Assembly: GCA_964649165.1 (NCBI GenBank)
Contig: CAZYPC010000008.1
Location: 9,788-73,787, forward strand
Origin: an uncultured Chryseobacterium sp.
Lineage (GTDB): Bacteria > Bacteroidota > Bacteroidia > Flavobacteriales_F > PHOS-HE28
Length of the DNA: 64,000 bases
Direction of reading: 5' to 3'
Shown: positions 8,734 through 62,544 of the stretch, piece by piece
Layout of the letters: each line of letters starts with the position of its first letter
How positions within the stretch are numbered: the stretch's first letter is position 1
Notes under the pieces: generated by a model
Told to the model about the DNA's origin: nothing
The model's database searches: none
Seen by the model: only the letters and a program-made list of their open reading frames with translations
Translations under genes and position numbers: made by a program

Positions 8734-11700
8734 CTACACGGCTCGGAGGCGCTTCCGGCGGCGCCACCAGAAGAAGCCCAGCGCGGCAACGCCGAGGAGC
8801 AAGCCGAGCTTCACCCAGATGCTGCGCATGAGGCTGCCGATCGCGTAGCCTACCCGATATGTATTGGATAGAGACTTGGGTCCAAGATCTACTAGAGTAT
8901 TGCCATAAACCTTTTCAACGTCGAGCATGTATAGGACGGCTGTTGGGGTGACAGGATAACGCTCGAACTCCCTGCGCGTTCGATGATTGGTGAGGACCAT
9001 TCCATTTCCAATGGGAGCGGCATAGCCCTGCTTCTCCAGTGCAATGGTGTTACCAACGACAATGGCGAAGCCATCTTCTGTCAGGCTGGAACGCCGGAGC
9101 AAGGCGCAGTTCTCCGCAGTGGGAATGACCTCATTGTAACGGGTATCACTGACATTGACAGTGTTCCAATAGACATCTTGATTGTCCACGCCATCCTTCC
9201 TCTGAACCAGAAGCGTTCTAACATCACGCACTTCGGCTCCTACGGAAAATACACTCATGGTGTCGGTAAGAATCCAAATCGCACTATCACGCCGACCACC
9301 TTCTGAAAGAATACTCCCAAACCCTTCGCCGAATAGACACCTTCCCCCCTCCTCTCCTTGGCGATGAGAACGGCGATGCGCATTCAACCGGGTCCGTGCA
9401 ACCTTGAGGTATGACCCTTGTTCATTCAGCGTATCTAAGAACGAGGCATTCAGAGCAAGAGCACTGATCTCCTTCAGCGAATACGACTCAGGGAACGACA
9501 CAATACCAGTCGAATCCCAGATGCCAATACCACTCGAGGAGTTGGCATATAGCACGGAGCCATCAGGAGCCAAACAAGCTTCGGTCATCGCCGCCTCGGA
9601 ACGGGGCAGTTCAATCCTCACTTGATTGGTACCATCAATCAGCCAGTAGCTATCGGACCCGTGACGATACTGGAAGCAGGCTTGCTCACCAAGTCCAAAG
9701 ACCAGATCAATTTCCCTGGGATTGAGCACATCACTGTGAAAATCGCAGCTCTGCTTCAGTCTGAAGCTGTCTTCCTGCAGTTCATACAACTTTACTCCTC
9801 GTATTGCCGCTCTCATGCCTCCAGCGCCAAGCACCGATTTCACCTTGCAAAAGACGCGGCCCCGCGATGGGTAAATGGTCAGATTGTCCATCCATTCGCG
9901 GTACCAGCCCGTAACTGCCAAGAGGTTCCGCTCCATTCTTCGCTTTTCAGGAAAGCTCGTGATGCCACCAACTAGCGCCTTGCTCAGCCCCAACCTATCT
10001 ATGCCCCCTGGTCTGGAAAGAAAGTAAGCATCGATTCCATCACCATCGGGCATAGAGCTTACCCGCGCCTTCGCCACTACTGTGTTCGAAAGACCTGGCA
10101 ATGTCTCCTTAATCTGAAGCACGCTGTCAAGGATCAAGAGCCTCGGATCATCCCTTTCCACATCAATCATGCTCAGTACAGAACAAGCTCCACCCAAGAG
10201 CTTCAGTCCATCCTTCCCAATGCTTCCCGAGAAACTCCCGGTGTGATCATGCTTACTGAAGATGATTTCGCTTGAGTTCGCGGAATAGGATTTCTTCTGA
10301 AACACCCTGACGGTCCGAAATCCTACAGGGAAATCCTTCGTTGCGGTGATCTCGTAACCCGTGCTTCCTTCCATTCCAACCAATCTGCCGTATTCAACAC
10401 CATCCATCGTGAATCCCCGATACTCAAGAAGATCCTCCCCTGGGAATACCAGAGCACGGCTCAACCTGGGTGTCCACGCAGACACTGGATCGGGTCGAAC
10501 GGTGCAATACAACTCGCCTTTGGGAACACCACTTCCAAACGAGGCGGACAGAACTCCGAGATCCGCATTCTTAACAGTGTTGCTCTCCCATTCATATACT
10601 CTCATGGAATCGGTCATGAACCGCACGCGCGAGCGTCCGAGTTGGTCATTGAAGCCAAAGAACGGCCTTTGAACTTCCTTGATCCACGCCAACTCCACAT
10701 TACGGGCGGTTCCGGGAACCTGAAGAAGTGTTTTGAAGACGAATCCAGTGTCGGACTGCACTATCTCGAACAGCCCTTCATCGTCATAGAAGCGGAACTC
10801 CCCATCCCAAGCAAGGTAGTCAACAGAGCTAACGGTTTTGACCGACCGCATAGGGTCGGGGCCAAACACATTGGGAATCGGTAGGGCCTCGCGTCGAATG
10901 ATCTTTCCTTGGTCATCGAACTGATAGAATGTAACCGAGGATTCTCCGAGCTCAAACACATGCCTCGTATCCCACAGATGCAATTCACGGACTCCCGATG
11001 AGGTCGAAAAGCTCGTGTCCGAAAGGTCGATTTTGGCGATGGTGCTTCCTGCATCAGACAAAATGAAAATCGCGCTGTCCGCCGTCAAAGTGAAATAGGG
11101 TGACCCTTCATGGGAGTGTCTGAGATCGGAAATTCGTGCTAGGGATCTGAATGGGATTTCGCGGATGACATCCCCGCGTGGTGTCATCAACCTCATTTTT
11201 CTATTCGTGGCTTGGCATACCACTAAACTGTCGGCAATCGCCTTGAGGTTACCGTTGACTACCATCGAGTCGATCGATGCCACCTGCTCAAACGCAGAAT
11301 CAAAGAACTTGACCGTATGGTCTTGTTCATTCCCGACCGCGAAGTACTGCATGGAAATCGGCCAAATCAGCATGTTGCCTTCGTACCGGGCGAGTTCATT
11401 GTACCCCAGGTCGTACGCTCCGGCGAGCGCCTTCACCGTGGTCGCATTCGAGTCCTCAAGGAATGCTTGTCGCGCGAATGCCAACCCCTTGATTGGGTCG
11501 GTTCCCAGCAAATCATCCGATCGCTGTGCCAACTCAAGGCTGTAATTCTTCCGTTGGACTCGATTCAACTCTTTCACTTTTCCGACAGTATACCAACTAG
11601 CCAGAATTCCAAATCCAAGCGCCCCGAAGGTCAGCCAACGTCTTTTACTGCGCCTGTCCCTTGCCTTCCTCTCCTCCTCCCCGAACGCCCCCTCCACAAA

Positions 11701-12909
11701 CCCCCTCACCTCCCCCTTCAAGTGCAACTGGTTCCTGTACGGCCGCAGGTAGGTGAGGTCATTCGCCGTCAGCTTCACCCCGCGCTTCAGGAATTGCCCA
11801 TGGGCCTGCTGCACGAATTGCCGCACCTCGATCAACTCTTGCTCTGCACGTGTGATGCGCTGGAAGATCTGCCGGGCGAGCGCGTCGTGGAGTAGTTCGT
11901 AACGCCCGCGTTCATCGCGTTCCTTCAGCAGGCGTTTGGTCACGAAGACCTGCAGCAGCCGTTCCACATCGGCGAGATCCATCGTGGTGCCGATGGTGTT
12001 CACCCATTCATGCGCTTCAGCAGAAGTCAGTTGCCGCTTGGTGCCTTGGTCACTCACGAACGTCTTCAGCAGTGCTTCGGCGCGTTGGGGTTCTGATGTA
12101 TCGGCGACCTGTTCATCCAGGAAGGCGCCGAGCAGGTCATCGACATGGCCTATCCGCTCCAACAGCGCGGGAGAGAAGGGCTCGTCGCCTTGGCGTGTAC
12201 GCCAGCAACGGTCGAGGAAAACCTGCAGGTAGCTGAGTTCGATGCCGTGACTTTCTGGATCGAGGCGCTCAACCAGGGCAGAGGCGAAGCCCTCGGTGCA
12301 GGTGATGCCATGTGCGCCGCATAGCTGTTGCACCACGTTCATCGCGTGGTGGTGGCTGAGCCGTTCCACGCGGTTGCGGTTCTCGATCAGCCCGGGGATG
12401 ACCCGCTCATAGCGCGTGAGTTCCGCGAGGTATTCCTCGCGCACGATGAAGATGCAGCGGGCATTCCGCTCCCCTTCGACCAGTCGTGCGATCGCCGTGA
12501 AGAAGTCCTCGGCTTCGCTGTGTGTGCCGAAGATGAAAAGCTCCTCGAACTGATCGAAGAGGAACCAGATGGGCTTGAAGTGGTCGAGGTAGAGGTTGGT
12601 GACGAGCTCGGCGAGGTCGCCTGTGCTCTTGGGTGTGAGGGTGTGCTCACGCACGGCCTCGGTGAGCGAGGAGAGCATGTCACCGGAGCGGCGCACGGGC
12701 ACGGGCAGCCAGTCGCTCTCCTGGAAGCGCGAGGCGAGGCCGCATTGCACGAGACTGGTCTTGCCGGTACCTGATCCGCCGTAAACGATGAGGATGTTGG
12801 AGAGGAAGCAGCGGCGGAAGAGCTCATCCGTTTCCTTCTCGCGCCCGAAGTAGGAGCCGATGTCGGCGCGGGTATAGCTGTCGAGGAACTTGAAGGGGGA
12901 GGCGCTCAT
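8734..12909 (-). CDS. STAND-class P-loop NTPase with two predicted TM helices bracketing a ~920-aa beta-rich region
   Basis: 1391 aa. The N-terminus reads FKFLDSYTRADIGSYFGREKETDELF...VYGGSGTGKTS (Walker A, nt 12754..12780). Walker B is IWFLFDQFEELF, the pattern seen in bacterial NACHT/nSTAND-type NTPases. Predicted TM1 is WLTFGALGFGILASWYTVG (about nt 11581..11637). Predicted TM2 is VKLGLLLGVAALGFFWW followed by RRRKRLRAV (about nt 8764..8814). Confidence 0.8.
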   Translation of the reverse strand: MSASPFKFLDSYTRADIGSYFGREKETDELFRRCFLSNILIVYGGSGTGKTSLVQCGLASRFQESDWLPVPVRRSGDMLSSLTEAVREHTLTPKSTGDLAELVTNLYLDHFKPIWFLFDQFEELFIFGTHSEAEDFFTAIARLVEGERNARCIFIVREEYLAELTRYERVIPGLIENRNRVERLSHHHAMNVVQQLCGAHGITCTEGFASALVERLDPESHGIELSYLQVFLDRCWRTRQGDEPFSPALLERIGHVDDLLGAFLDEQVADTSEPQRAEALLKTFVSDQGTKRQLTSAEAHEWVNTIGTTMDLADVERLLQVFVTKRLLKERDERGRYELLHDALARQIFQRITRAEQELIEVRQFVQQAHGQFLKRGVKLTANDLTYLRPYRNQLHLKGEVRGFVEGAFGEEERKARDRRSKRRWLTFGALGFGILASWYTVGKVKELNRVQRKNYSLELAQRSDDLLGTDPIKGLAFARQAFLEDSNATTVKALAGAYDLGYNELARYEGNMLIWPISMQYFAVGNEQDHTVKFFDSAFEQVASIDSMVVNGNLKAIADSLVVCQATNRKMRLMTPRGDVIREIPFRSLARISDLRHSHEGSPYFTLTADSAIFILSDAGSTIAKIDLSDTSFSTSSGVRELHLWDTRHVFELGESSVTFYQFDDQGKIIRREALPIPNVFGPDPMRSVKTVSSVDYLAWDGEFRFYDDEGLFEIVQSDTGFVFKTLLQVPGTARNVELAWIKEVQRPFFGFNDQLGRSRVRFMTDSMRVYEWESNTVKNADLGVLSASFGSGVPKGELYCTVRPDPVSAWTPRLSRALVFPGEDLLEYRGFTMDGVEYGRLVGMEGSTGYEITATKDFPVGFRTVRVFQKKSYSANSSEIIFSKHDHTGSFSGSIGKDGLKLLGGACSVLSMIDVERDDPRLLILDSVLQIKETLPGLSNTVVAKARVSSMPDGDGIDAYFLSRPGGIDRLGLSKALVGGITSFPEKRRMERNLLAVTGWYREWMDNLTIYPSRGRVFCKVKSVLGAGGMRAAIRGVKLYELQEDSFRLKQSCDFHSDVLNPREIDLVFGLGEQACFQYRHGSDSYWLIDGTNQVRIELPRSEAAMTEACLAPDGSVLYANSSSGIGIWDSTGIVSFPESYSLKEISALALNASFLDTLNEQGSYLKVARTRLNAHRRSHRQGEEGGRCLFGEGFGSILSEGGRRDSAIWILTDTMSVFSVGAEVRDVRTLLVQRKDGVDNQDVYWNTVNVSDTRYNEVIPTAENCALLRRSSLTEDGFAIVVGNTIALEKQGYAAPIGNGMVLTNHRTRREFERYPVTPTAVLYMLDVEKVYGNTLVDLGPKSLSNTYRVGYAIGSLMRSIWVKLGLLLGVAALGFFWWRRRKRLRAV

Positions 12910-12926
12910 GATCGCTCAACTGCGAT

Positions 12927-13083
12927 GATCAAAAACAACAATGCGTCCCGGAAGCCCGGCGACGCGCAGCGTCGGGAACCGGGCTGTCCGGGACCTCACC
13001 CGATACTGCGTGGCATCATCGGGTGAGGTCCCGGACAGCCGGGGCCCCGGCCGCCTTGGGGCGGCCGCCCGGCTTCCGGGACG
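12927..13083 (-). terminator. compound hairpin followed by a U-rich tract (terminator or attenuator-like) between two co-oriented genes
   Basis: There is a perfect 23-bp inner stem (12982..13004 with 13018..13040, 13-nt loop). A 13-bp outer stem pairs 12944..12956 with 13071..13083, and a small GC hairpin ggccgcc-ttgg-ggcggcc lies between. On the minus-strand RNA the structure is followed by CAUUGUUGUUUUUGAUC. The ATG of the STAND gene lies 34 nt downstream of the outer stem. Confidence 0.6.
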
Positions 13084-13126
13084 GCTCAGTGGAATTATTG
13101 GCAGTAGCATCATGCAGTAGCCTCGA

Positions 13127-14203
13127 TCAGTTCTGCCCGGGTCCGGTGATCGCCAGCATCATATCGCGGTATTCTTCCAGGAGATCAGCGTAGTTGCCGA
13201 GGGCGCGCAGGTCGCACTTCTCGGTGGCCTCGGTGCCGGCGTACATCAGGTGATCGCCCTTGATCTTGGTGTACAGGAAAATGTCCTTGCGGATCTCCAG
13301 CTTTTCCTTCGCATCGATGGCCTCGCTGTGCGTGTCGATGATGAGCGGCGAGAGGTTGAGGTACTCGTCGATGGCCTTCAGGTTGCGCAGCAGGAGCACG
13401 GCGTGGCTCTCGGTGAAGCGGATGCCGTCCACGTCGCTGGCCTTGAAATCGGAATCGGAGCTGTTGAGCAGGTCGATGCGATGGTGGAAGACGGCGTCCT
13501 TGAAGCGCGGTTTGTGAACCTGGATCTCGCGCACGCTCACGAGCCTGTACTTGCAGAGGAAGGCGAGGGCGGAGAGCAGGTCGCCGAGACGGTCGGTGCA
13601 TTCCACGCAGCGGCGCTCGATCTCCTCCTGGTTGAGGTTGATCTGGTAGTGGCCGATCTCGTTGCGCTCGGGCACCCAGAGGTCGAGGCTCGCGTAGAAC
13701 TTGTTGTTGAGCACCTCCTTCAATTCGGGGAGGAAAAGGTTGACCTCGGGCGCGGCCATCACCTTGCCGAGTTCGCGCACGAGCCAGGTGAGGTTACCGA
13801 GGGTGATCTGCTCGAAGCGCCGCTCGAACTCCTGGATAAAGGCTGGGGAGAGCTGGAGGGTGCCGGCCTTGCGCTCCTTCCACGCTTGGGCGAGCATGAC
13901 GAAGGCGAGGAACTGCAGCGAGCGCTCGATGGTCTTGAAGAGCTGGTCCAGCCGGTGGCGGTCGGCGTTGCGCATGCCGCCGGAGAAGAGGCGCCGCAGC
14001 TCCACGCCGATGGGCCAGGGGAAATTGCGGACGATCTGGTCGGCGAGCAGCCGACGGTCCACCTCCTGACCATCCTCTTCGCCCATGGCCAGCACGGCGG
14101 CAAGGGAGGGCTTGTGCGCGACCATCGCATGGAACACGCGTTCCACGACGGTATCGTTGGCGGTGGTGGGGCGCATTGTGTCGAAGGTAGCATTTCCGCG
14201 CAC
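13127..14203 (-). CDS. hypothetical protein with two RNxxxH (HEPN-type Rx4H) motifs; candidate HEPN-like RNase
   Basis: 358-aa ORF with a GTG at 14203 and an alternative ATG at 14176. I recognise no family. The N-terminal half looks helical and contains RNADRH (nt 13955..13972) and RNEIGH (nt 13649..13666). The C-terminal half appears beta-rich. It sits directly upstream of the STAND NTPase on the same strand. Confidence 0.6.
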   Translation of the reverse strand: MRGNATFDTMRPTTANDTVVERVFHAMVAHKPSLAAVLAMGEEDGQEVDRRLLADQIVRNFPWPIGVELRRLFSGGMRNADRHRLDQLFKTIERSLQFLAFVMLAQAWKERKAGTLQLSPAFIQEFERRFEQITLGNLTWLVRELGKVMAAPEVNLFLPELKEVLNNKFYASLDLWVPERNEIGHYQINLNQEEIERRCVECTDRLGDLLSALAFLCKYRLVSVREIQVHKPRFKDAVFHHRIDLLNSSDSDFKASDVDGIRFTESHAVLLLRNLKAIDEYLNLSPLIIDTHSEAIDAKEKLEIRKDIFLYTKIKGDHLMYAGTEATEKCDLRALGNYADLLEEYRDMMLAITGPGQN

Positions 14204-14232
14204 CGCCGCAAGAGGCAGGGAACAGGGCTATT

Positions 14233-14922
14233 TTGGCGACCATGCCGAAGCAGGAAACATCCCGCAAGCCCGCGCCGTCCGAAGCGGTGGAATGCAGCTT
14301 GATGCTCATCGATGTGAGCGGTTTCACTCAGCTCCTGTACCACTCGAGCTATAAGGAAGAAGTGATGCGCGTGGTCGCTCTGGCCATGAAGCGTTTTTTC
14401 CAGGACGCCGCCGATACCGCGAAGGAGACGCGCGATGTGGAGGTGATCAATACGACCGGTGACGGCTTCATCGCGATCGCCACAGGGGCCACGCCATCAC
14501 GCACAGCGGTACGATTCTGCCAGGGCATCCGTGCGCATTTCGACGAAAAGGTGAAGGCGATGATCCATTCCGTACCGTTCCGCCAACGCGTGGACCTGCG
14601 CATCGCCCTGCACCACGGCACGGTACACCGCATCGCGATCACCGGGCTCACCGCCGGCGATCATCCGGTCTACATCGGCGATGACATCAACCTGATCGCG
14701 CGGGTGATCAACAGCCAGGTCGCCCGGCGGTATGGCATCGCGGTCACGCGCGCCTTCTACCGCCGGCTCACCATGACGAAGGGTGATGCGCCGATGGCCG
14801 ACGAGGTGATCCTGGACCGCAACCGCTATCCCGAGCAGATCGAGATCTACAAGCTGCCCACCGACATTCCGGACATGGCTGTGAAGAAGCGGCCTCATCC
14901 CGACCCGTCGGCGAAGCGCTGA
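14233..14922 (+). CDS. stand-alone class III nucleotidyl cyclase homology domain protein
   Basis: 229-aa ORF with a TTG at 14233 and an ATG at 14242. The cyclase motifs appear in the expected order: LMLIDVSGFTQL (metal Asp), TTGDGFIAI (second Asp), RIALHHGTV, and YIGDDINLIARV (Asn/Arg pair). There is no sensor or TM domain. Confidence 0.75.
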   Translation: MATMPKQETSRKPAPSEAVECSLMLIDVSGFTQLLYHSSYKEEVMRVVALAMKRFFQDAADTAKETRDVEVINTTGDGFIAIATGATPSRTAVRFCQGIRAHFDEKVKAMIHSVPFRQRVDLRIALHHGTVHRIAITGLTAGDHPVYIGDDINLIARVINSQVARRYGIAVTRAFYRRLTMTKGDAPMADEVILDRNRYPEQIEIYKLPTDIPDMAVKKRPHPDPSAKR

Positions 14923-20553: not shown

Positions 20554-20774
20554 CCTACCTGATGGACCGTATCACCGTTGATCCCGCTGTGTGCGGCGGT
20601 CGTCCGTGCATCCGGGGCATGCGCATCCGGGTCACGGACATTCTGGACCTCCTGGCTTCCGGACTTTCCGCGCAACAGGTCGTTGAAGAGCTTCCCGATC
20701 TCGAATTGGCGGATGTGGAGGCTGCCTTGAAGTTCGCCAGTGGCCGTATTGACCACCCCATTCTGGCCGCGTGA
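20550..20774 (+). CDS. DUF433 domain protein (putative antitoxin)
   Basis: 74 aa. ITVDPAVCGGRPCIRGMRIRVTDILDLLASG is the DUF433 signature. Confidence 0.8.
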   Translation: MTYLMDRITVDPAVCGGRPCIRGMRIRVTDILDLLASGLSAQQVVEELPDLELADVEAALKFASGRIDHPILAA

Positions 20775-21106
20775 CCATCTGGCTTGATGCACAGCTCTCC
20801 CCGGTGCTGGCCAATTGGATCCGGGCAACGTTCCAAGTGCAGTGCTTCCCGATCAGGGACCTTTGTCCGCTCACCATGCCGGATGAAGCGCTCTTCCTGA
20901 AGGCCAGGGGCATGGCCGATGTGGTCATCACCAAGGATCTGGACCTGGTGAACATCCTGCAGCGCCTTGGCCCTCCACCGCGCATCCTCTGGCTGCGCAT
21001 GGGCAACGCCACCAATGCCCGGTTGAAGGAGGTGTTCGGCAAGCGGTTGGCCTCGGCTCTGCGAATGATCGAAGAAGGTGAACCCTTGGTGGAGCTGACG
21101 GATTAG
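20771..21106 (+). CDS. DUF5615/Mut7-C PIN-like protein (putative toxin partner of DUF433)
   Basis: 111 aa. The sequence MTIWLDAQLSP...VVITKDLDL... is typical of the PIN-like partner encoded downstream of DUF433 genes. It overlaps the DUF433 gene by 4 nt. Confidence 0.7.
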   Translation: MTIWLDAQLSPVLANWIRATFQVQCFPIRDLCPLTMPDEALFLKARGMADVVITKDLDLVNILQRLGPPPRILWLRMGNATNARLKEVFGKRLASALRMIEEGEPLVELTD

Positions 21107-21109
21107 CCG

Positions 21110-23365
21110 ATGAGAGCGGTATTGGTCGGTGCCTTTCTGATCTGGGCGTTGGATATCACCGCCCAAGAAGAGCCCATCATCCTCGTCGAGAATGGGAGGA
21201 GCCAATGGCACATCGTACCGTTGGACGGCGACAGTGCAATGTCCACGGGTTTGTTTGTCCAGGCCGCGATCTCCAAGCTCTCAGGCGTATCGTTGCCCAT
21301 CAGTGATTCAAAGCGAGGCTGCAGCATCGTCATCGGAACTCGGGCTCGCATCAAAGAAGCTTACAAACGCGAGGAGCGGATGTTCACCTACGAAGTGGAC
21401 CAGCTCGTGGCGCCATTCGGTGATCACATCTGCATTGCTGGAGATGATTGGGAGAGCCTGATGTGGCCTGCTCGAGAGTTCCTGATGTACCTCAACGGTA
21501 CTGAGATGTTGGCCCCAGGCGTGATCTCCTTCAGGCACGTCGACACACTGCGTTTCGGCGATCCAGAGCTCAAGGGCAAACCTGCATTCAGCTTCCGAAT
21601 GCCCTATTACTCTCCGGCCCGCGATCATGAATATTCCCTCTGGAACGGGATCGATCAGATCGGATTCGGTGCTCCTCGTGAGCTTCATTATTCATGGGGC
21701 CTCTGGGTACACACCATGCACCGCTTCGTCCCGCCCGCGCAGTTCGATGCACACCCGGAGTACTTCGCGGAACGCAACGGCACCCGCGTTCCCGACCAGC
21801 TGTGCCTGAGCAACCCCGAGGTACTGCGCATCACCGTGGACAGCCTGCGTGCGATGATGGCCGGCAAGCCCGCTGCGCGATACTGGAGCGTGAGCCAGAT
21901 GGACAACTTCAACCACTGCCAGTGCGCGCAATGCCACCGCACCGACAGCATCGAGGGCGCACCCAGCGGCACCATCCTCCGATTCGCGAACGCTGTCGCC
22001 GACAGCTTTCCCGACATGGTGATCAGCACACTGGCCTACCAGTACAGCCGCACCGCCCCGAAGGTGACGAAGCCGCGGCCCAACGTGAACATCATGCTCT
22101 GCAGCATCGAGGAGGACCGCAGCCGGCCGATCGCATCGCGGGATCAGCCCGGTTCCTTCACGTCGGACCTACGCGCGTGGTCTTCCCTTACCCACAACAT
22201 CATCGTGTGGGACTATGTGATCAACTTCTCGCACCTGGTGATGCCCTTCCCAAACTGGAAGGTGCTCGCGCCCAACCTGCAGCTCTTCCGCGACAACGGG
22301 GTACCGATGATGTTCGAGCAGGGGCTCTCTTCTCCGGGCGGAGAGATGCCCGAGTTCCGCACCTACCTGCTCGCCAAGCTGCTCTGGAACCCCGACCTCA
22401 ACGTGGACTCGCTGCGCACGCACTTCATGGACGGGTTCTATGGCGAGGCAGGCACCTACCTCGACAAGTACACGCACCTGCTTGAAGAGGAGCTGGACAG
22501 GAGCGGCAAGGCGCTCACGCTTTACGAACACCCGCAATCACACAAGAACGGCTACCTCAGTCCGGCGAACCTCGCGAAGTACAAGATGCTCTTCAACAGT
22601 GCCGAGGCCGCAGTGATGGACGAGGACACCATCTACCAGTGGCGCGTGGAGGATGCGCGATTGGGGATCATGTACGCCGAGCTGGAGATCGCGCGCGCCA
22701 TGCCACATGCACCGAACGGGCTCTTCGAAAAGGATAGCACGGGGAGCTGGCGCGCGAAGCCCTACTACACGGAGCTGCTGGAGACCTTCGTCTCACGGGC
22801 GAAGAAGCACGGGCACCGGCTGTTGCACGAGACGCGGCTGACACCGGATGAATACCTCGCCGAATTCAGTGCGCACCTGAAGCACGGCGCGCGATCACAT
22901 CTGGCCGTCGGCAAGACCATCACCTTCGCCACACCGCCGGATGAACGCTATCCAGGAGGTGGGCCTGATGCGCTGATCGACGGCTTCACGGCCAGCACCA
23001 ATTACCAGTTCGGTTGGCAGGGGTGGTATGGCAAGGACATGGTGGTGACGATCGATCTGGGCGCATCCCATCGCATCGATTCAGTGAGCATCGCCTTTCT
23101 GCAAGACCAACAGAGCTGGATATTCCTGCCGGGTGAAGTCCGATGGCAGGCCTCCATGGATGGGAGCGCCTGGCATGAATTCGCAGCTGACCGCAAGTCA
23201 TCAGCTTCGATCAAGGGCGATCTGAGCGTACACATCACCGATCACCTTCGAGGAACCCAGGCCCGTTACATCCGCATCATGGCCAAGAACCTGGGCGACC
23301 TGCCCGCCTGGCACGGCAGCAAGGGCAAGTGCTGGTTGTTCTGTGATGAGATCGTAGTGCGATAG
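21110..23365 (+). CDS. DUF4838-type glycoside-hydrolase-like protein with a C-terminal F5/8 type C (discoidin) domain
   Basis: 751 aa with a signal peptide and the Cys cluster NHCQCAQCHRTDSIEG...LRFANAVADSFPD. The C-terminus (ALIDGFTASTNYQFGWQGWYGKDMVVTIDLG...) is discoidin-like. Confidence 0.65.
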   Translation: MRAVLVGAFLIWALDITAQEEPIILVENGRSQWHIVPLDGDSAMSTGLFVQAAISKLSGVSLPISDSKRGCSIVIGTRARIKEAYKREERMFTYEVDQLVAPFGDHICIAGDDWESLMWPAREFLMYLNGTEMLAPGVISFRHVDTLRFGDPELKGKPAFSFRMPYYSPARDHEYSLWNGIDQIGFGAPRELHYSWGLWVHTMHRFVPPAQFDAHPEYFAERNGTRVPDQLCLSNPEVLRITVDSLRAMMAGKPAARYWSVSQMDNFNHCQCAQCHRTDSIEGAPSGTILRFANAVADSFPDMVISTLAYQYSRTAPKVTKPRPNVNIMLCSIEEDRSRPIASRDQPGSFTSDLRAWSSLTHNIIVWDYVINFSHLVMPFPNWKVLAPNLQLFRDNGVPMMFEQGLSSPGGEMPEFRTYLLAKLLWNPDLNVDSLRTHFMDGFYGEAGTYLDKYTHLLEEELDRSGKALTLYEHPQSHKNGYLSPANLAKYKMLFNSAEAAVMDEDTIYQWRVEDARLGIMYAELEIARAMPHAPNGLFEKDSTGSWRAKPYYTELLETFVSRAKKHGHRLLHETRLTPDEYLAEFSAHLKHGARSHLAVGKTITFATPPDERYPGGGPDALIDGFTASTNYQFGWQGWYGKDMVVTIDLGASHRIDSVSIAFLQDQQSWIFLPGEVRWQASMDGSAWHEFAADRKSSASIKGDLSVHITDHLRGTQARYIRIMAKNLGDLPAWHGSKGKCWLFCDEIVVR

Positions 23366-61728: not shown

Positions 61729-62544
61729 CTACCAACGATAAGCGACATGCGCACCGAGCACATCCGGCGAGACGAGGGGAACCACGCTGAGACGCTCGGT
61801 GCGCGTGCGCCGATGCAGATGGGGAATGAGGTATCCGGCCGCACCGCCCATGAGGGCTCCGACGATCACATCACTGGGGAAATGCTTGCCGCCCTGGATC
61901 CGGTAGTAACCGACAAGTGCGGGAGGAACGAGCGCCGCTCCATAGACCAACCAACGCTTTCCCCCGAGCTCGGGATGCAGATCGTCGATCACCTTCGCCA
62001 TGAAGAAGGTGGCCACCGCCGTGTTCGCCGTGTGCCCGCTGTAGAAGGAGTTCACGTTGCGCTGATCCGTGCGTTGGCCCAGCGTGGCCGTGGGGATATA
62101 AGCGATGGGCCGATAGCGCGGAAAGGCCGACGTGCTCAACGTCTGTACGCCTCCGGTGATCAATGCCGACTCCACGTAGAGGGTGGCGATCGCGAGCCAC
62201 TCGCGCCTGACCCGCCTGTCCAGGCCCAACAACAACGGAGCCCCGGCGGAAATGTTCAGCACGAGGTCCGAGCTGCCCAGCGCACGGTCCTGACCGGTCG
62301 GGTCGACGCGCAAGGCGGCACGATCGAATGCCGGCACGCGGCTCTCGTCGAGTGCCAGGACCAGATCCTCCGAGAGCGGGAGCCGATCGTCCTGCAGCCG
62401 AAGACCGATGAACGTCGCCGCGAAACCCCCGACGCACAGCGCCGCGTCCATCCACGGTCGTACGCGATACACACTGCTGTCCCGTTGGGCCATGCCCGAT
62501 ACCACCGTCAATAAGAGCCCTACGCCGATCACGCCACGCTTCAT
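61729..62544 (-). CDS. PAP2 family phosphatase
   Basis: Motifs SFYSGHTANTA (PSGH-like) and GGKHFPSDVIVGALMG (SRxxxxxHxxxD-like). I placed the start at MKRGVIGVGLLLTVVSGMAQ (62544). Confidence 0.8.
   Translation of the reverse strand: MKRGVIGVGLLLTVVSGMAQRDSSVYRVRPWMDAALCVGGFAATFIGLRLQDDRLPLSEDLVLALDESRVPAFDRAALRVDPTGQDRALGSSDLVLNISAGAPLLLGLDRRVRREWLAIATLYVESALITGGVQTLSTSAFPRYRPIAYIPTATLGQRTDQRNVNSFYSGHTANTAVATFFMAKVIDDLHPELGGKRWLVYGAALVPPALVGYYRIQGGKHFPSDVIVGALMGGAAGYLIPHLHRRTRTERLSVVPLVSPDVLGAHVAYRW

Follow-up and report, generated by a model that had tools for sequence, protein, structure and literature searches.

The window analysed here, a stretch of 64,000 nucleotides from an uncultured Chryseobacterium sp. 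(contig CAZYPC010000008.1, positions 9,788 to 73,787), contains three adjacent genes that an earlier note had proposed as an undescribed module made up of a HEPN-motif protein, a membrane-spanning STAND NTPase and a divergently transcribed nucleotide cyclase. All three open reading frames (ORFs) are present with the motifs ascribed to them, and are referred to below as A, B and C. Genes A and B represent a conserved two-gene module that is found in several bacterial phyla.

Positions 13127..14203, minus strand: gene A, an ORF of 358 amino acids (aa) with a GTG start at 14203; the ATG start of its homologues, at 14176, gives 13127..14176 and a cytoplasmic protein of 349 aa.
Positions 8734..12909, minus strand: gene B, an ORF of 1391 aa for a membrane-spanning nSTAND1 NTPase.
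Positions 14233..14922, plus strand: gene C, an ORF of 229 aa for a stand-alone class III nucleotide cyclase domain, with the ATG at 14242 as its likely start.

A one-genome-per-species scan returned 213 relatives of protein A, and 80 loci were analysed. At 64 of the 79 loci with enough downstream sequence, an nSTAND1 gene follows A on the same strand within at most 600 bp, and at most of the other A loci one is located 0.6-5 kb downstream. The neighbourhoods of these loci are otherwise unrelated, with genes for gamma-glutamyltranspeptidase, rhamnosidase, a beta-lactamase-fold protein and TPR-SpoIIE proteins among the examples, and because the surrounding genes differ from locus to locus the linkage between A and nSTAND1 is not attributable to shared synteny. 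The pairing of the 358-aa protein with the STAND NTPase, which the earlier note had suggested from a single locus, is thus conserved across many neighbourhoods. The proposed A + TM-nSTAND1 family is defined by an nSTAND1 protein starting with SPFKFLD..FFGR, a transmembrane (TM) helix after the NTPase module and a gene for the A core directly upstream; the window locus belongs to it, its A-core gene being located directly upstream of B in the same orientation. Many A loci contain 2-5 tandem nSTAND1 genes, some of which are fragmented, and several genomes possess 2 or 3 A loci. Tandem arrays of 2-5 TM-nSTAND1 paralogues after a single A gene were seen at L061, L039, L052, L002, L032, L037, L058, L063, L064 and L083, and frameshift-fragmented nSTAND1 paralogues at L004/L074, L015, L039 and L073. 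At 21 loci nSTAND1 is followed on the same strand by a gene of ~340-380 aa that resembles outer membrane protein (OMP) beta-barrels, with weak matches to OMP_b-brl / OMP_b-brl_2, and its product may be an outer-membrane third component; no such gene is present in the window. Loci with the OMP-like gene directly after nSTAND1 include L004, L016, L020, L085 and L087.

The following features were identified within gene B.

Positions 11785..12897, minus strand: nSTAND1 NTPase module, aa 5-375 (PF20703, E=1.3e-37).
Positions 12754-12780, minus strand: Walker A motif GGSGTGKTS, within the nSTAND1 module.
Positions 12541-12564, minus strand: Walker B motif FLFDQFEE, within the nSTAND1 module.
Positions 11581..11637, minus strand: predicted TM helix 1, aa 425-443, of marginal hydropathy and preceded by an Arg-rich stretch.
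Positions 9016..11301, minus strand: hypervariable low-GC region, aa ~537-1298, presumably extracytoplasmic and with no detectable homologue.
Positions 8767..8823, minus strand: predicted TM helix 2, aa 1363-1381, followed by an RRRKR tail; the segment is conserved in L005 and L002.

Protein B matches PF20703 with 130.8 bits (cut-off 27.1), its residues 5-375 (NTPase, helical and winged-helix module) aligning to the 379-position profile, and G44, S46, G47, G49, K50, D119, Q120, F121 and E123 are invariant in 44 B homologues. Among the PADLOC profiles for Avs, bNACHT and other STAND defence systems, only insignificant P-loop matches were obtained for B and none for proteins with the A domain. 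With regard to the membrane segments described earlier, the C-terminal helix is clear, whereas the first is marginal by hydropathy and yet aligns with a strong TM helix in homologues: a strong single helix is found at aa ~425-476, right after the STAND module, in 60 of 67 partner proteins, and RRRR precedes it in the consensus. Partners from three other phyla also have a strong helix at this position, and WD40 propellers come after the helix in ~30 of 44 partners, the sequence beyond it being otherwise unrecognisable. The membrane-spanning character of the STAND protein is supported, and the predicted segments suggest a topology in which the N-terminus lies inside, the middle part outside and the C-terminus again inside.

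When B is compared with its closest relatives (77% identity), homology ends at aa ~536 and resumes at ~1299, that is, over the last ~85 residues. The nearest public relative of the locus is L005, an activated-sludge Flavobacteriales metagenome-assembled genome (MAG) with ~86% DNA identity across the locus; the alignment of the window with L005 has 85.6% identity over 14223-11669, is absent over 11668-8839 and picks up again across the C-terminal anchor and the MBOAT/GDSL genes. The ectodomain region of B has been exchanged as a cassette at a syntenic site relative to L005. No match at E<=1e-3 was found for aa 521-1301 (~770 aa without a homologue) among 5.8 billion proteins, and the ectodomain is free of internal repeats and does not occur a second time in the window. 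A compositional break inside the STAND gene, which had also been pointed out before, was recovered as a drop in G+C content (GC) and in GC at third codon positions (GC3): the N-terminal 1.3 kb has GC 0.615 and GC3 0.79, the remainder GC 0.527 and GC3 0.59, and GC3 is 0.90 in gene A. In all seven relatives checked, GC likewise falls in the C-terminal part of B.

Protein A had no match in Pfam, NCBIfam and PADLOC scans, nor among PDB sequences by phmmer and profile searches. Its homologues number >1,000 at E<=1e-3, those with names all being from Bacteroidota MAGs, and identity across orders is ~55%; when the profile search was made exhaustive, 871 representatives remained after clustering at 50%, many with N-terminal extensions. 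All family members have a conserved core in common (PWPIGxELRRLFS ... NLSPLIIDT), and A would define a new protein domain family with >1,000 members in Bacteroidota, Acidobacteriota, KSB1 and Alphaproteobacteria. In the AlphaFold model of A, which has a confident fold overall (predicted local distance difference test score, pLDDT, 78.8; predicted template modelling score, pTM, 0.84), aa 1-210 make up a helical N-terminal domain and aa 211-315 a beta-rich domain, after which a helix closes the C-terminus. Foldseek returned nothing below E=0.1 for the full model against PDB and BFVD or for the helical domain alone against PDB. An identification of A as EACC1 was considered and rejected, as EACC1 is a small single-TM domain paired with caspases. 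One of the A + nSTAND1 loci, L045 (JBLNAO010000168.1), was deposited as a Chloroflexota MAG, the rest of the top 80 being Bacteroidota, and this label is probably a binning error.

Two RNxxxH strings, both taken as catalytic HEPN motifs in the earlier note, are indeed encoded by gene A.

Positions 13649..13666, minus strand: conserved RNxxxH, R171-N172-E-I-G-H176 within WVPERNEIGHYQ (ERNEIGH = aa 170-176), a candidate HEPN-like active site.
Positions 13955..13972, minus strand: second RNxxxH string, RNADRH (aa 69-74), not conserved and probably fortuitous.

Only ERNEIGH is conserved. The site of RNADRH reads RKAERH, RAADRR or RQLDRM in relatives and is lost already in a 92%-identical one, whereas among 26 stand-alone A proteins down to 26% identity R171 and N172 are two of only eleven invariant columns and H176 is kept in at least 90%. 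RNxxxH occurs in 41 of the 53 stand-alone representatives that cover the site and in none of 50 fused ones (CHAT, helix-turn-helix or cyclase), a pattern that is expected if RNxxxH is the output of proteins lacking any other output domain. The window A and 33 close homologues have no HEPN profile match in Pfam. Three of 10 divergent stand-alone A proteins match HEPN_RiboL-PSP (5.5e-4 and 3.9e-3) or Cas_Csm6_HEPN (0.028) over the motif region, all below the curated cut-offs. It may be, although the odds are somewhat against it, that stand-alone A is a HEPN-like RNase.

The fused forms of A were typed in 150 representatives, using BLAST for fusions and recording the motif, with Pfam naming the N-terminal extensions. 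An AraC-type helix-turn-helix (HTH) is fused to A in P0128, P0137, P0144 and P0148, an AraC HTH together with a class III cyclase in P0125, P0140 and P0141, and a CHAT protease in P0173, P0192, P0206 and many more; by BLAST, CHAT-A is the most common fused form (56/150). At every readable fusion locus an nSTAND1 gene is located directly downstream, its product starting with SPFKFLD..FFGR and, where complete, containing the TM helix. The order at L085 is HTH-cyclase-A, nSTAND1, WD40 and OMP-like gene, and the fusions at L086, L087 and L088 precede the same nSTAND1 type. After CHAT-A, TM-nSTAND1 was found in Allopontixanthobacter sediminis (Alphaproteobacteria; L096), Flavilitoribacter nigricans (Saprospiraceae; L097) and Aminicenantes (L098). 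As all fusions examined precede the same TM-nSTAND1, the A core is its constant partner across at least four phyla, with interchangeable output domains. CHAT-A loci also hold genes for caspase-DUF7379, TIR-TPR and a CHAT-kinase-cyclase-AAA_16 protein. The last of these is encoded at L098 3263-7924, beside CHAT-A and nSTAND1-WD40, and its 1553 aa comprise CHAT, Ser/Thr kinase and class III cyclase domains together with an AAA_16 STAND-like NTPase; it has strong matches to the PADLOC PD-T4-6 kinase.

With moderate confidence, a two-gene system composed of a trans-membrane STAND sensor and its partner A, with a role of the conflict or immune type, is favoured here. B would be receptor-like, with a cytoplasmic NTPase, a TM helix, a rapidly replaced ectodomain of ~900 aa, another TM anchor and a tail that is short and basic, and A would be its dedicated cytoplasmic partner, the conserved A core possibly docking onto the activated STAND module. 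The ectodomain may sense a ligand or perturbation outside the cytoplasmic membrane, which would drive nucleotide-dependent oligomerisation of the STAND module, and oligomerisation would in turn cluster and activate A. In stand-alone A the output would most likely be the RNxxxH site, acting as a HEPN-like RNase that requires two juxtaposed copies, and activation might then lead to cleavage of RNA and an arrest of growth; the A core of other lineages would act through the CHAT protease, the AraC DNA-binding domain or AraC plus cyclase that it carries instead. The molecules sensed in the envelope would plausibly be derived from phages or competitors. A conflict role is favoured because the ectodomains are orphan and replaced, nSTAND1 paralogues form arrays and decay, CHAT, caspase and TIR proteins keep company with the system, and the nSTAND1 clade has known associations of this kind.

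Several observations weigh against this interpretation. The hydropathy of the first TM helix of the window protein, ~1.18 when computed by hand, leaves it uncalled at the threshold of 1.3. What the sequences show is the gene linkage, the domain fusions, the positions of the TM helices, the hypervariability and the distribution of the motif; the topology of B, the contact between A and B, the RNase activity and the biological role we infer. The locus is situated amid housekeeping genes and not in a defence island, and searches of IMG/VR viral contigs, INPHARED phages and PLSDB plasmids returned no A. The HEPN assignment made in the earlier note retains one conserved RNxxxH and three sub-threshold Pfam matches in its favour, but Foldseek searches with the AlphaFold models (full-length and helical domain) recovered no HEPN or other fold in PDB/BFVD; the only HEPN-class entry seen, 2q00, appeared at rank 43 with E=6.7 (for its class, see PMC3710099). 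The HEPN fold is a four-helix up-down bundle whose last core helix opens with the motif. The motif region of A is all-helical in the model, and RNxxxH is placed just ahead of a long helix in a segment with pLDDT <50. The hairpin that separates A from B, described below, could uncouple their transcription, and outputs such as AraC and cyclase suggest a signalling system of the ordinary kind and not immunity by cell death.

A possible, though rather less probable, scenario is non-immune trans-envelope signalling by a sensory system comparable to the hybrid two-component systems of Bacteroidota or to STAND regulators of the MalT type, in which the ectodomain would bind an environmental or envelope ligand and A would relay the signal to transcription or a second messenger, stand-alone A acting via another partner, possibly the adjacent cyclase. 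Such a role would agree with the AraC and AraC-cyclase fusions to the A core that precede the same nSTAND1-WD40 and then an OMP-barrel-like gene, and it is fitted by the occurrence of that third gene at 21 loci, by the housekeeping neighbours and by the lack of phage, plasmid or viral association of A. On the other hand, the share of CHAT-A among the representatives, in company with caspase and TIR genes, and the invariant nuclease-like motif of the stand-alone clade both speak against it, and orphan ectodomains swapped between close relatives, along with decaying paralogues, are atypical of nutrient sensors. The proteins may also be pictured, as a speculative proposal, as trans-membrane receptors resembling NLR proteins (with nucleotide-binding and leucine-rich-repeat domains) in pattern recognition and architecturally nearer to Toll-like receptors, in which the cassette-swapped ectodomain would survey the periplasm or envelope for molecules of phages or competitors, the signal would pass by oligomerisation of the STAND module and A would be a hitherto unrecognised adaptor with HEPN-like RNase, CHAT, AraC or cyclase outputs, a split-off cyclase adding a cyclic-nucleotide branch at the present locus. 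That the genes are neighbours only, with no function in common, is very improbable. The long hairpin between A and B would suit mere adjacency, as would the absence of mobile and defence hallmarks around the locus, which bears out the earlier remark on missing mobile or phage genes; for A and B, however, it is contradicted by the 64/79 linkage across orders, the fused forms across phyla and the unrelated neighbourhoods.

The three-gene model of the earlier note, in which a cyclic nucleotide made by the divergent cyclase works with the HEPN-motif protein and the STAND NTPase in the manner of Pycsar or CBASS, seems unlikely as a whole; its A-STAND half stands on conserved linkage, whereas the cyclase adjoins A in two close lineages only, namely that of the window and one sister lineage. 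Protein C itself is well supported as a cyclase (Guanylate_cyc PF00211, E=2e-10, 41 bits where the cut-off is 21.9): its two metal-binding Asp residues and transition-state Asn/Arg align with those of a related cyclase domain (IDVSGFT, GDG, RIALHHG, DINLIARV), and the substrate-specifying Lys position is occupied by Asn. In favour of the model, the cyclase-A-B arrangement of the window recurs in L089 (91% cyclase identity) and L006/L091 (72%, the two being the same sequence), cyclase domains are fused to A in the three proteins named above, the CHAT-kinase-cyclase-AAA_16 protein adjoins a CHAT-A locus, C has a weak match to PADLOC PycC (4e-7), and the spacer of 30-65 bp between the divergent A and C suggests shared regulation. 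However, the cyclase is missing at the other 80 or more A loci, and of the first 84 loci fetched L006 alone, with an A protein of 83% identity, contains a relative of C. Seven loci were obtained for C from a metagenome scan, and in L092, L093 (71-72%) and L094 (50%) the orthologues have no A or B within 1.6-6 kb and are located beside genes for recR, GT2 glycosyltransferase and HAD hydrolase. Identity between the window cyclase and the A-fused cyclase domain is only 23%; no cyclic nucleotide monophosphate (cNMP)-binding domain was found in A, B or rpoN, and no SAVED, CARF or TIR domain in A or B.

As the cyclase is rare beside A, and A and B contain no cNMP-binding domain, it is not a conserved component. 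In Pycsar the cyclase gene adjoins that of an effector whose cNMP-binding domain is fused to a TM or TIR module; the reading of C as a Pycsar cyclase was rejected for want of an effector and in view of orthologues in housekeeping contexts. The cyclase is probably a resident gene and at most a lineage-specific accessory. A functional link to A/B within this lineage is conceivable but has a low probability; it is kept in view because of the cyclase-A fusions, the cyclase-containing neighbour at L098 and the retention of the trio in L006, where tblastn detected neither rpoN nor MBOAT in the 14.8 kb fetched. In two further loci (L090 1270-3738 and L095 330-2981), a protein of 822-883 aa with a type IX secretion system sorting tail is encoded between the cyclase (88-91% identical) and rpoN; as cyclase and rpoN are only 40-108 bp apart in the window, the local gene order is fluid.

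No description of the A family, of its pairing with TM-nSTAND1 or of output swapping was found in the literature and profile libraries, neither PADLOC nor NCBIfam contains a model of A or of the pair, and no named system matches, in agreement with the undescribed status claimed earlier. Among systems of comparable architecture, the hybrid two-component systems (HTCS) of Bacteroides join a beta-propeller sensor in the periplasm, by way of a TM segment, to transduction in the cytoplasm and an output of the AraC type, and MalT is a STAND protein that controls transcription. Unlike these, the present module lacks kinase and receiver domains, its NTPase is N-terminal, and any DNA-binding domain belongs to the separate protein A; the window A has no HTH. 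Avs and bNACHT are each a single polypeptide located in the cytoplasm, where it senses phage proteins. These antiviral STAND proteins follow the same logic of effector, STAND switch and variable sensor, WD40 sensors included (PMC13581612), whereas the A-B module is predicted to have its sensor outside the cytoplasm, and a gene of its own encodes the effector or adaptor; no PADLOC profile for Avs matches. The nSTAND1 conflict systems (PMC7159879, PMC8195603) share with B the PF20703 clade and variable C-terminal regions of repeat or lectin type, and with the present loci caspase/CHAT and TIR effectors in cis or in the neighbourhood and an enrichment in environmental bacteria. In these accounts they couple effectors via EAD or Death-like adaptor domains at the N-terminus of the STAND protein, whereas B begins directly with the NTPase, has a TM helix between the NTPase and the variable region and is accompanied by a separate partner A without an EAD/bDLD Pfam match. 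Membrane-spanning STAND ATPases are likewise mentioned, in passing and as sensors, in the defence-type Pepco-protease modules; those are protease-fused, Pepco-paired and found in Actinobacteria and cyanobacteria, and no A-family partner is mentioned (bioRxiv 10.1101/2025.11.14.688446). HEPN-STAND fusions and HEPN abortive-infection RNases (PMC3710099) resemble A in coupling an Rx4-6H-type motif to a STAND NTPase, but A forms a polypeptide of its own and has a beta-rich domain in addition, and HEPN is a candidate fold for it, no curated threshold having been reached. Pycsar (PycC plus a cNMP-activated effector) has in common with C the small class III cyclase, and differs from the present locus in having an effector of this kind adjacent.

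The nSTAND1/STAND conflict systems, HEPN-STAND fusions and TM STAND ATPases are known, and the A family, the obligatory pairing and the output swapping appear to be new. To our knowledge, bacterial STAND/NLR immune sensors described so far act inside the cytoplasm. If a membrane-anchored STAND protein with a diversifying domain on the far side does signal to a new adaptor with swappable outputs, the NLR paradigm would be extended beyond the cytoplasmic membrane, and the modular outputs (RNase-like motif, protease, transcription factor and cyclase) would represent natural experiments on how STAND proteins transmit signals in trans.

The spacer between A and B and the flanks of the locus contain additional features, one of which is listed here.

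Positions 12935..13095, minus strand: long GC-rich hairpin in the spacer of 217 bp between A and B, with a U-rich tract after it.

This nested hairpin of 160 nt fills the spacer (-126 kcal/mol, z=-11.6), and UUGUUGUUUUUG comes directly after it. It is also present in L005, where the spacer measures 216 bp, and no blastn alignment was obtained there in L089 (spacer ~118 bp). The hairpin could be an inserted palindromic element or an internal attenuator or terminator. An Rfam scan of the whole window identified tRNA only, and a scan for consensus promoters and terminators gave no signal above chance. One flank of the locus contains genes for SLT-LysM, two GDSL hydrolases and MBOAT, and the other those for RpoN and PhoD, with a gap of 40-108 bp between the cyclase and rpoN. 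Elsewhere in the window, low GC3 was noted for the ORFs 20555-21211 (minus strand, 0.64) and 61747-62514 (plus strand, 0.67); the former had no Pfam/PADLOC match at the thresholds used, and the latter none in PADLOC, the sole scan made for it. A gene pair at 786-2261 and 2268-2618, both on the minus strand, likewise has low GC3 (0.65 and 0.60, respectively, compared with 0.75-0.9 in its neighbours). The 491-aa protein of this pair has a PLD-like domain (PLDc_2, 6e-10) and a weak match to PADLOC ZacB (1.9e-6), and its gene may encode a foreign or defence-type nuclease.

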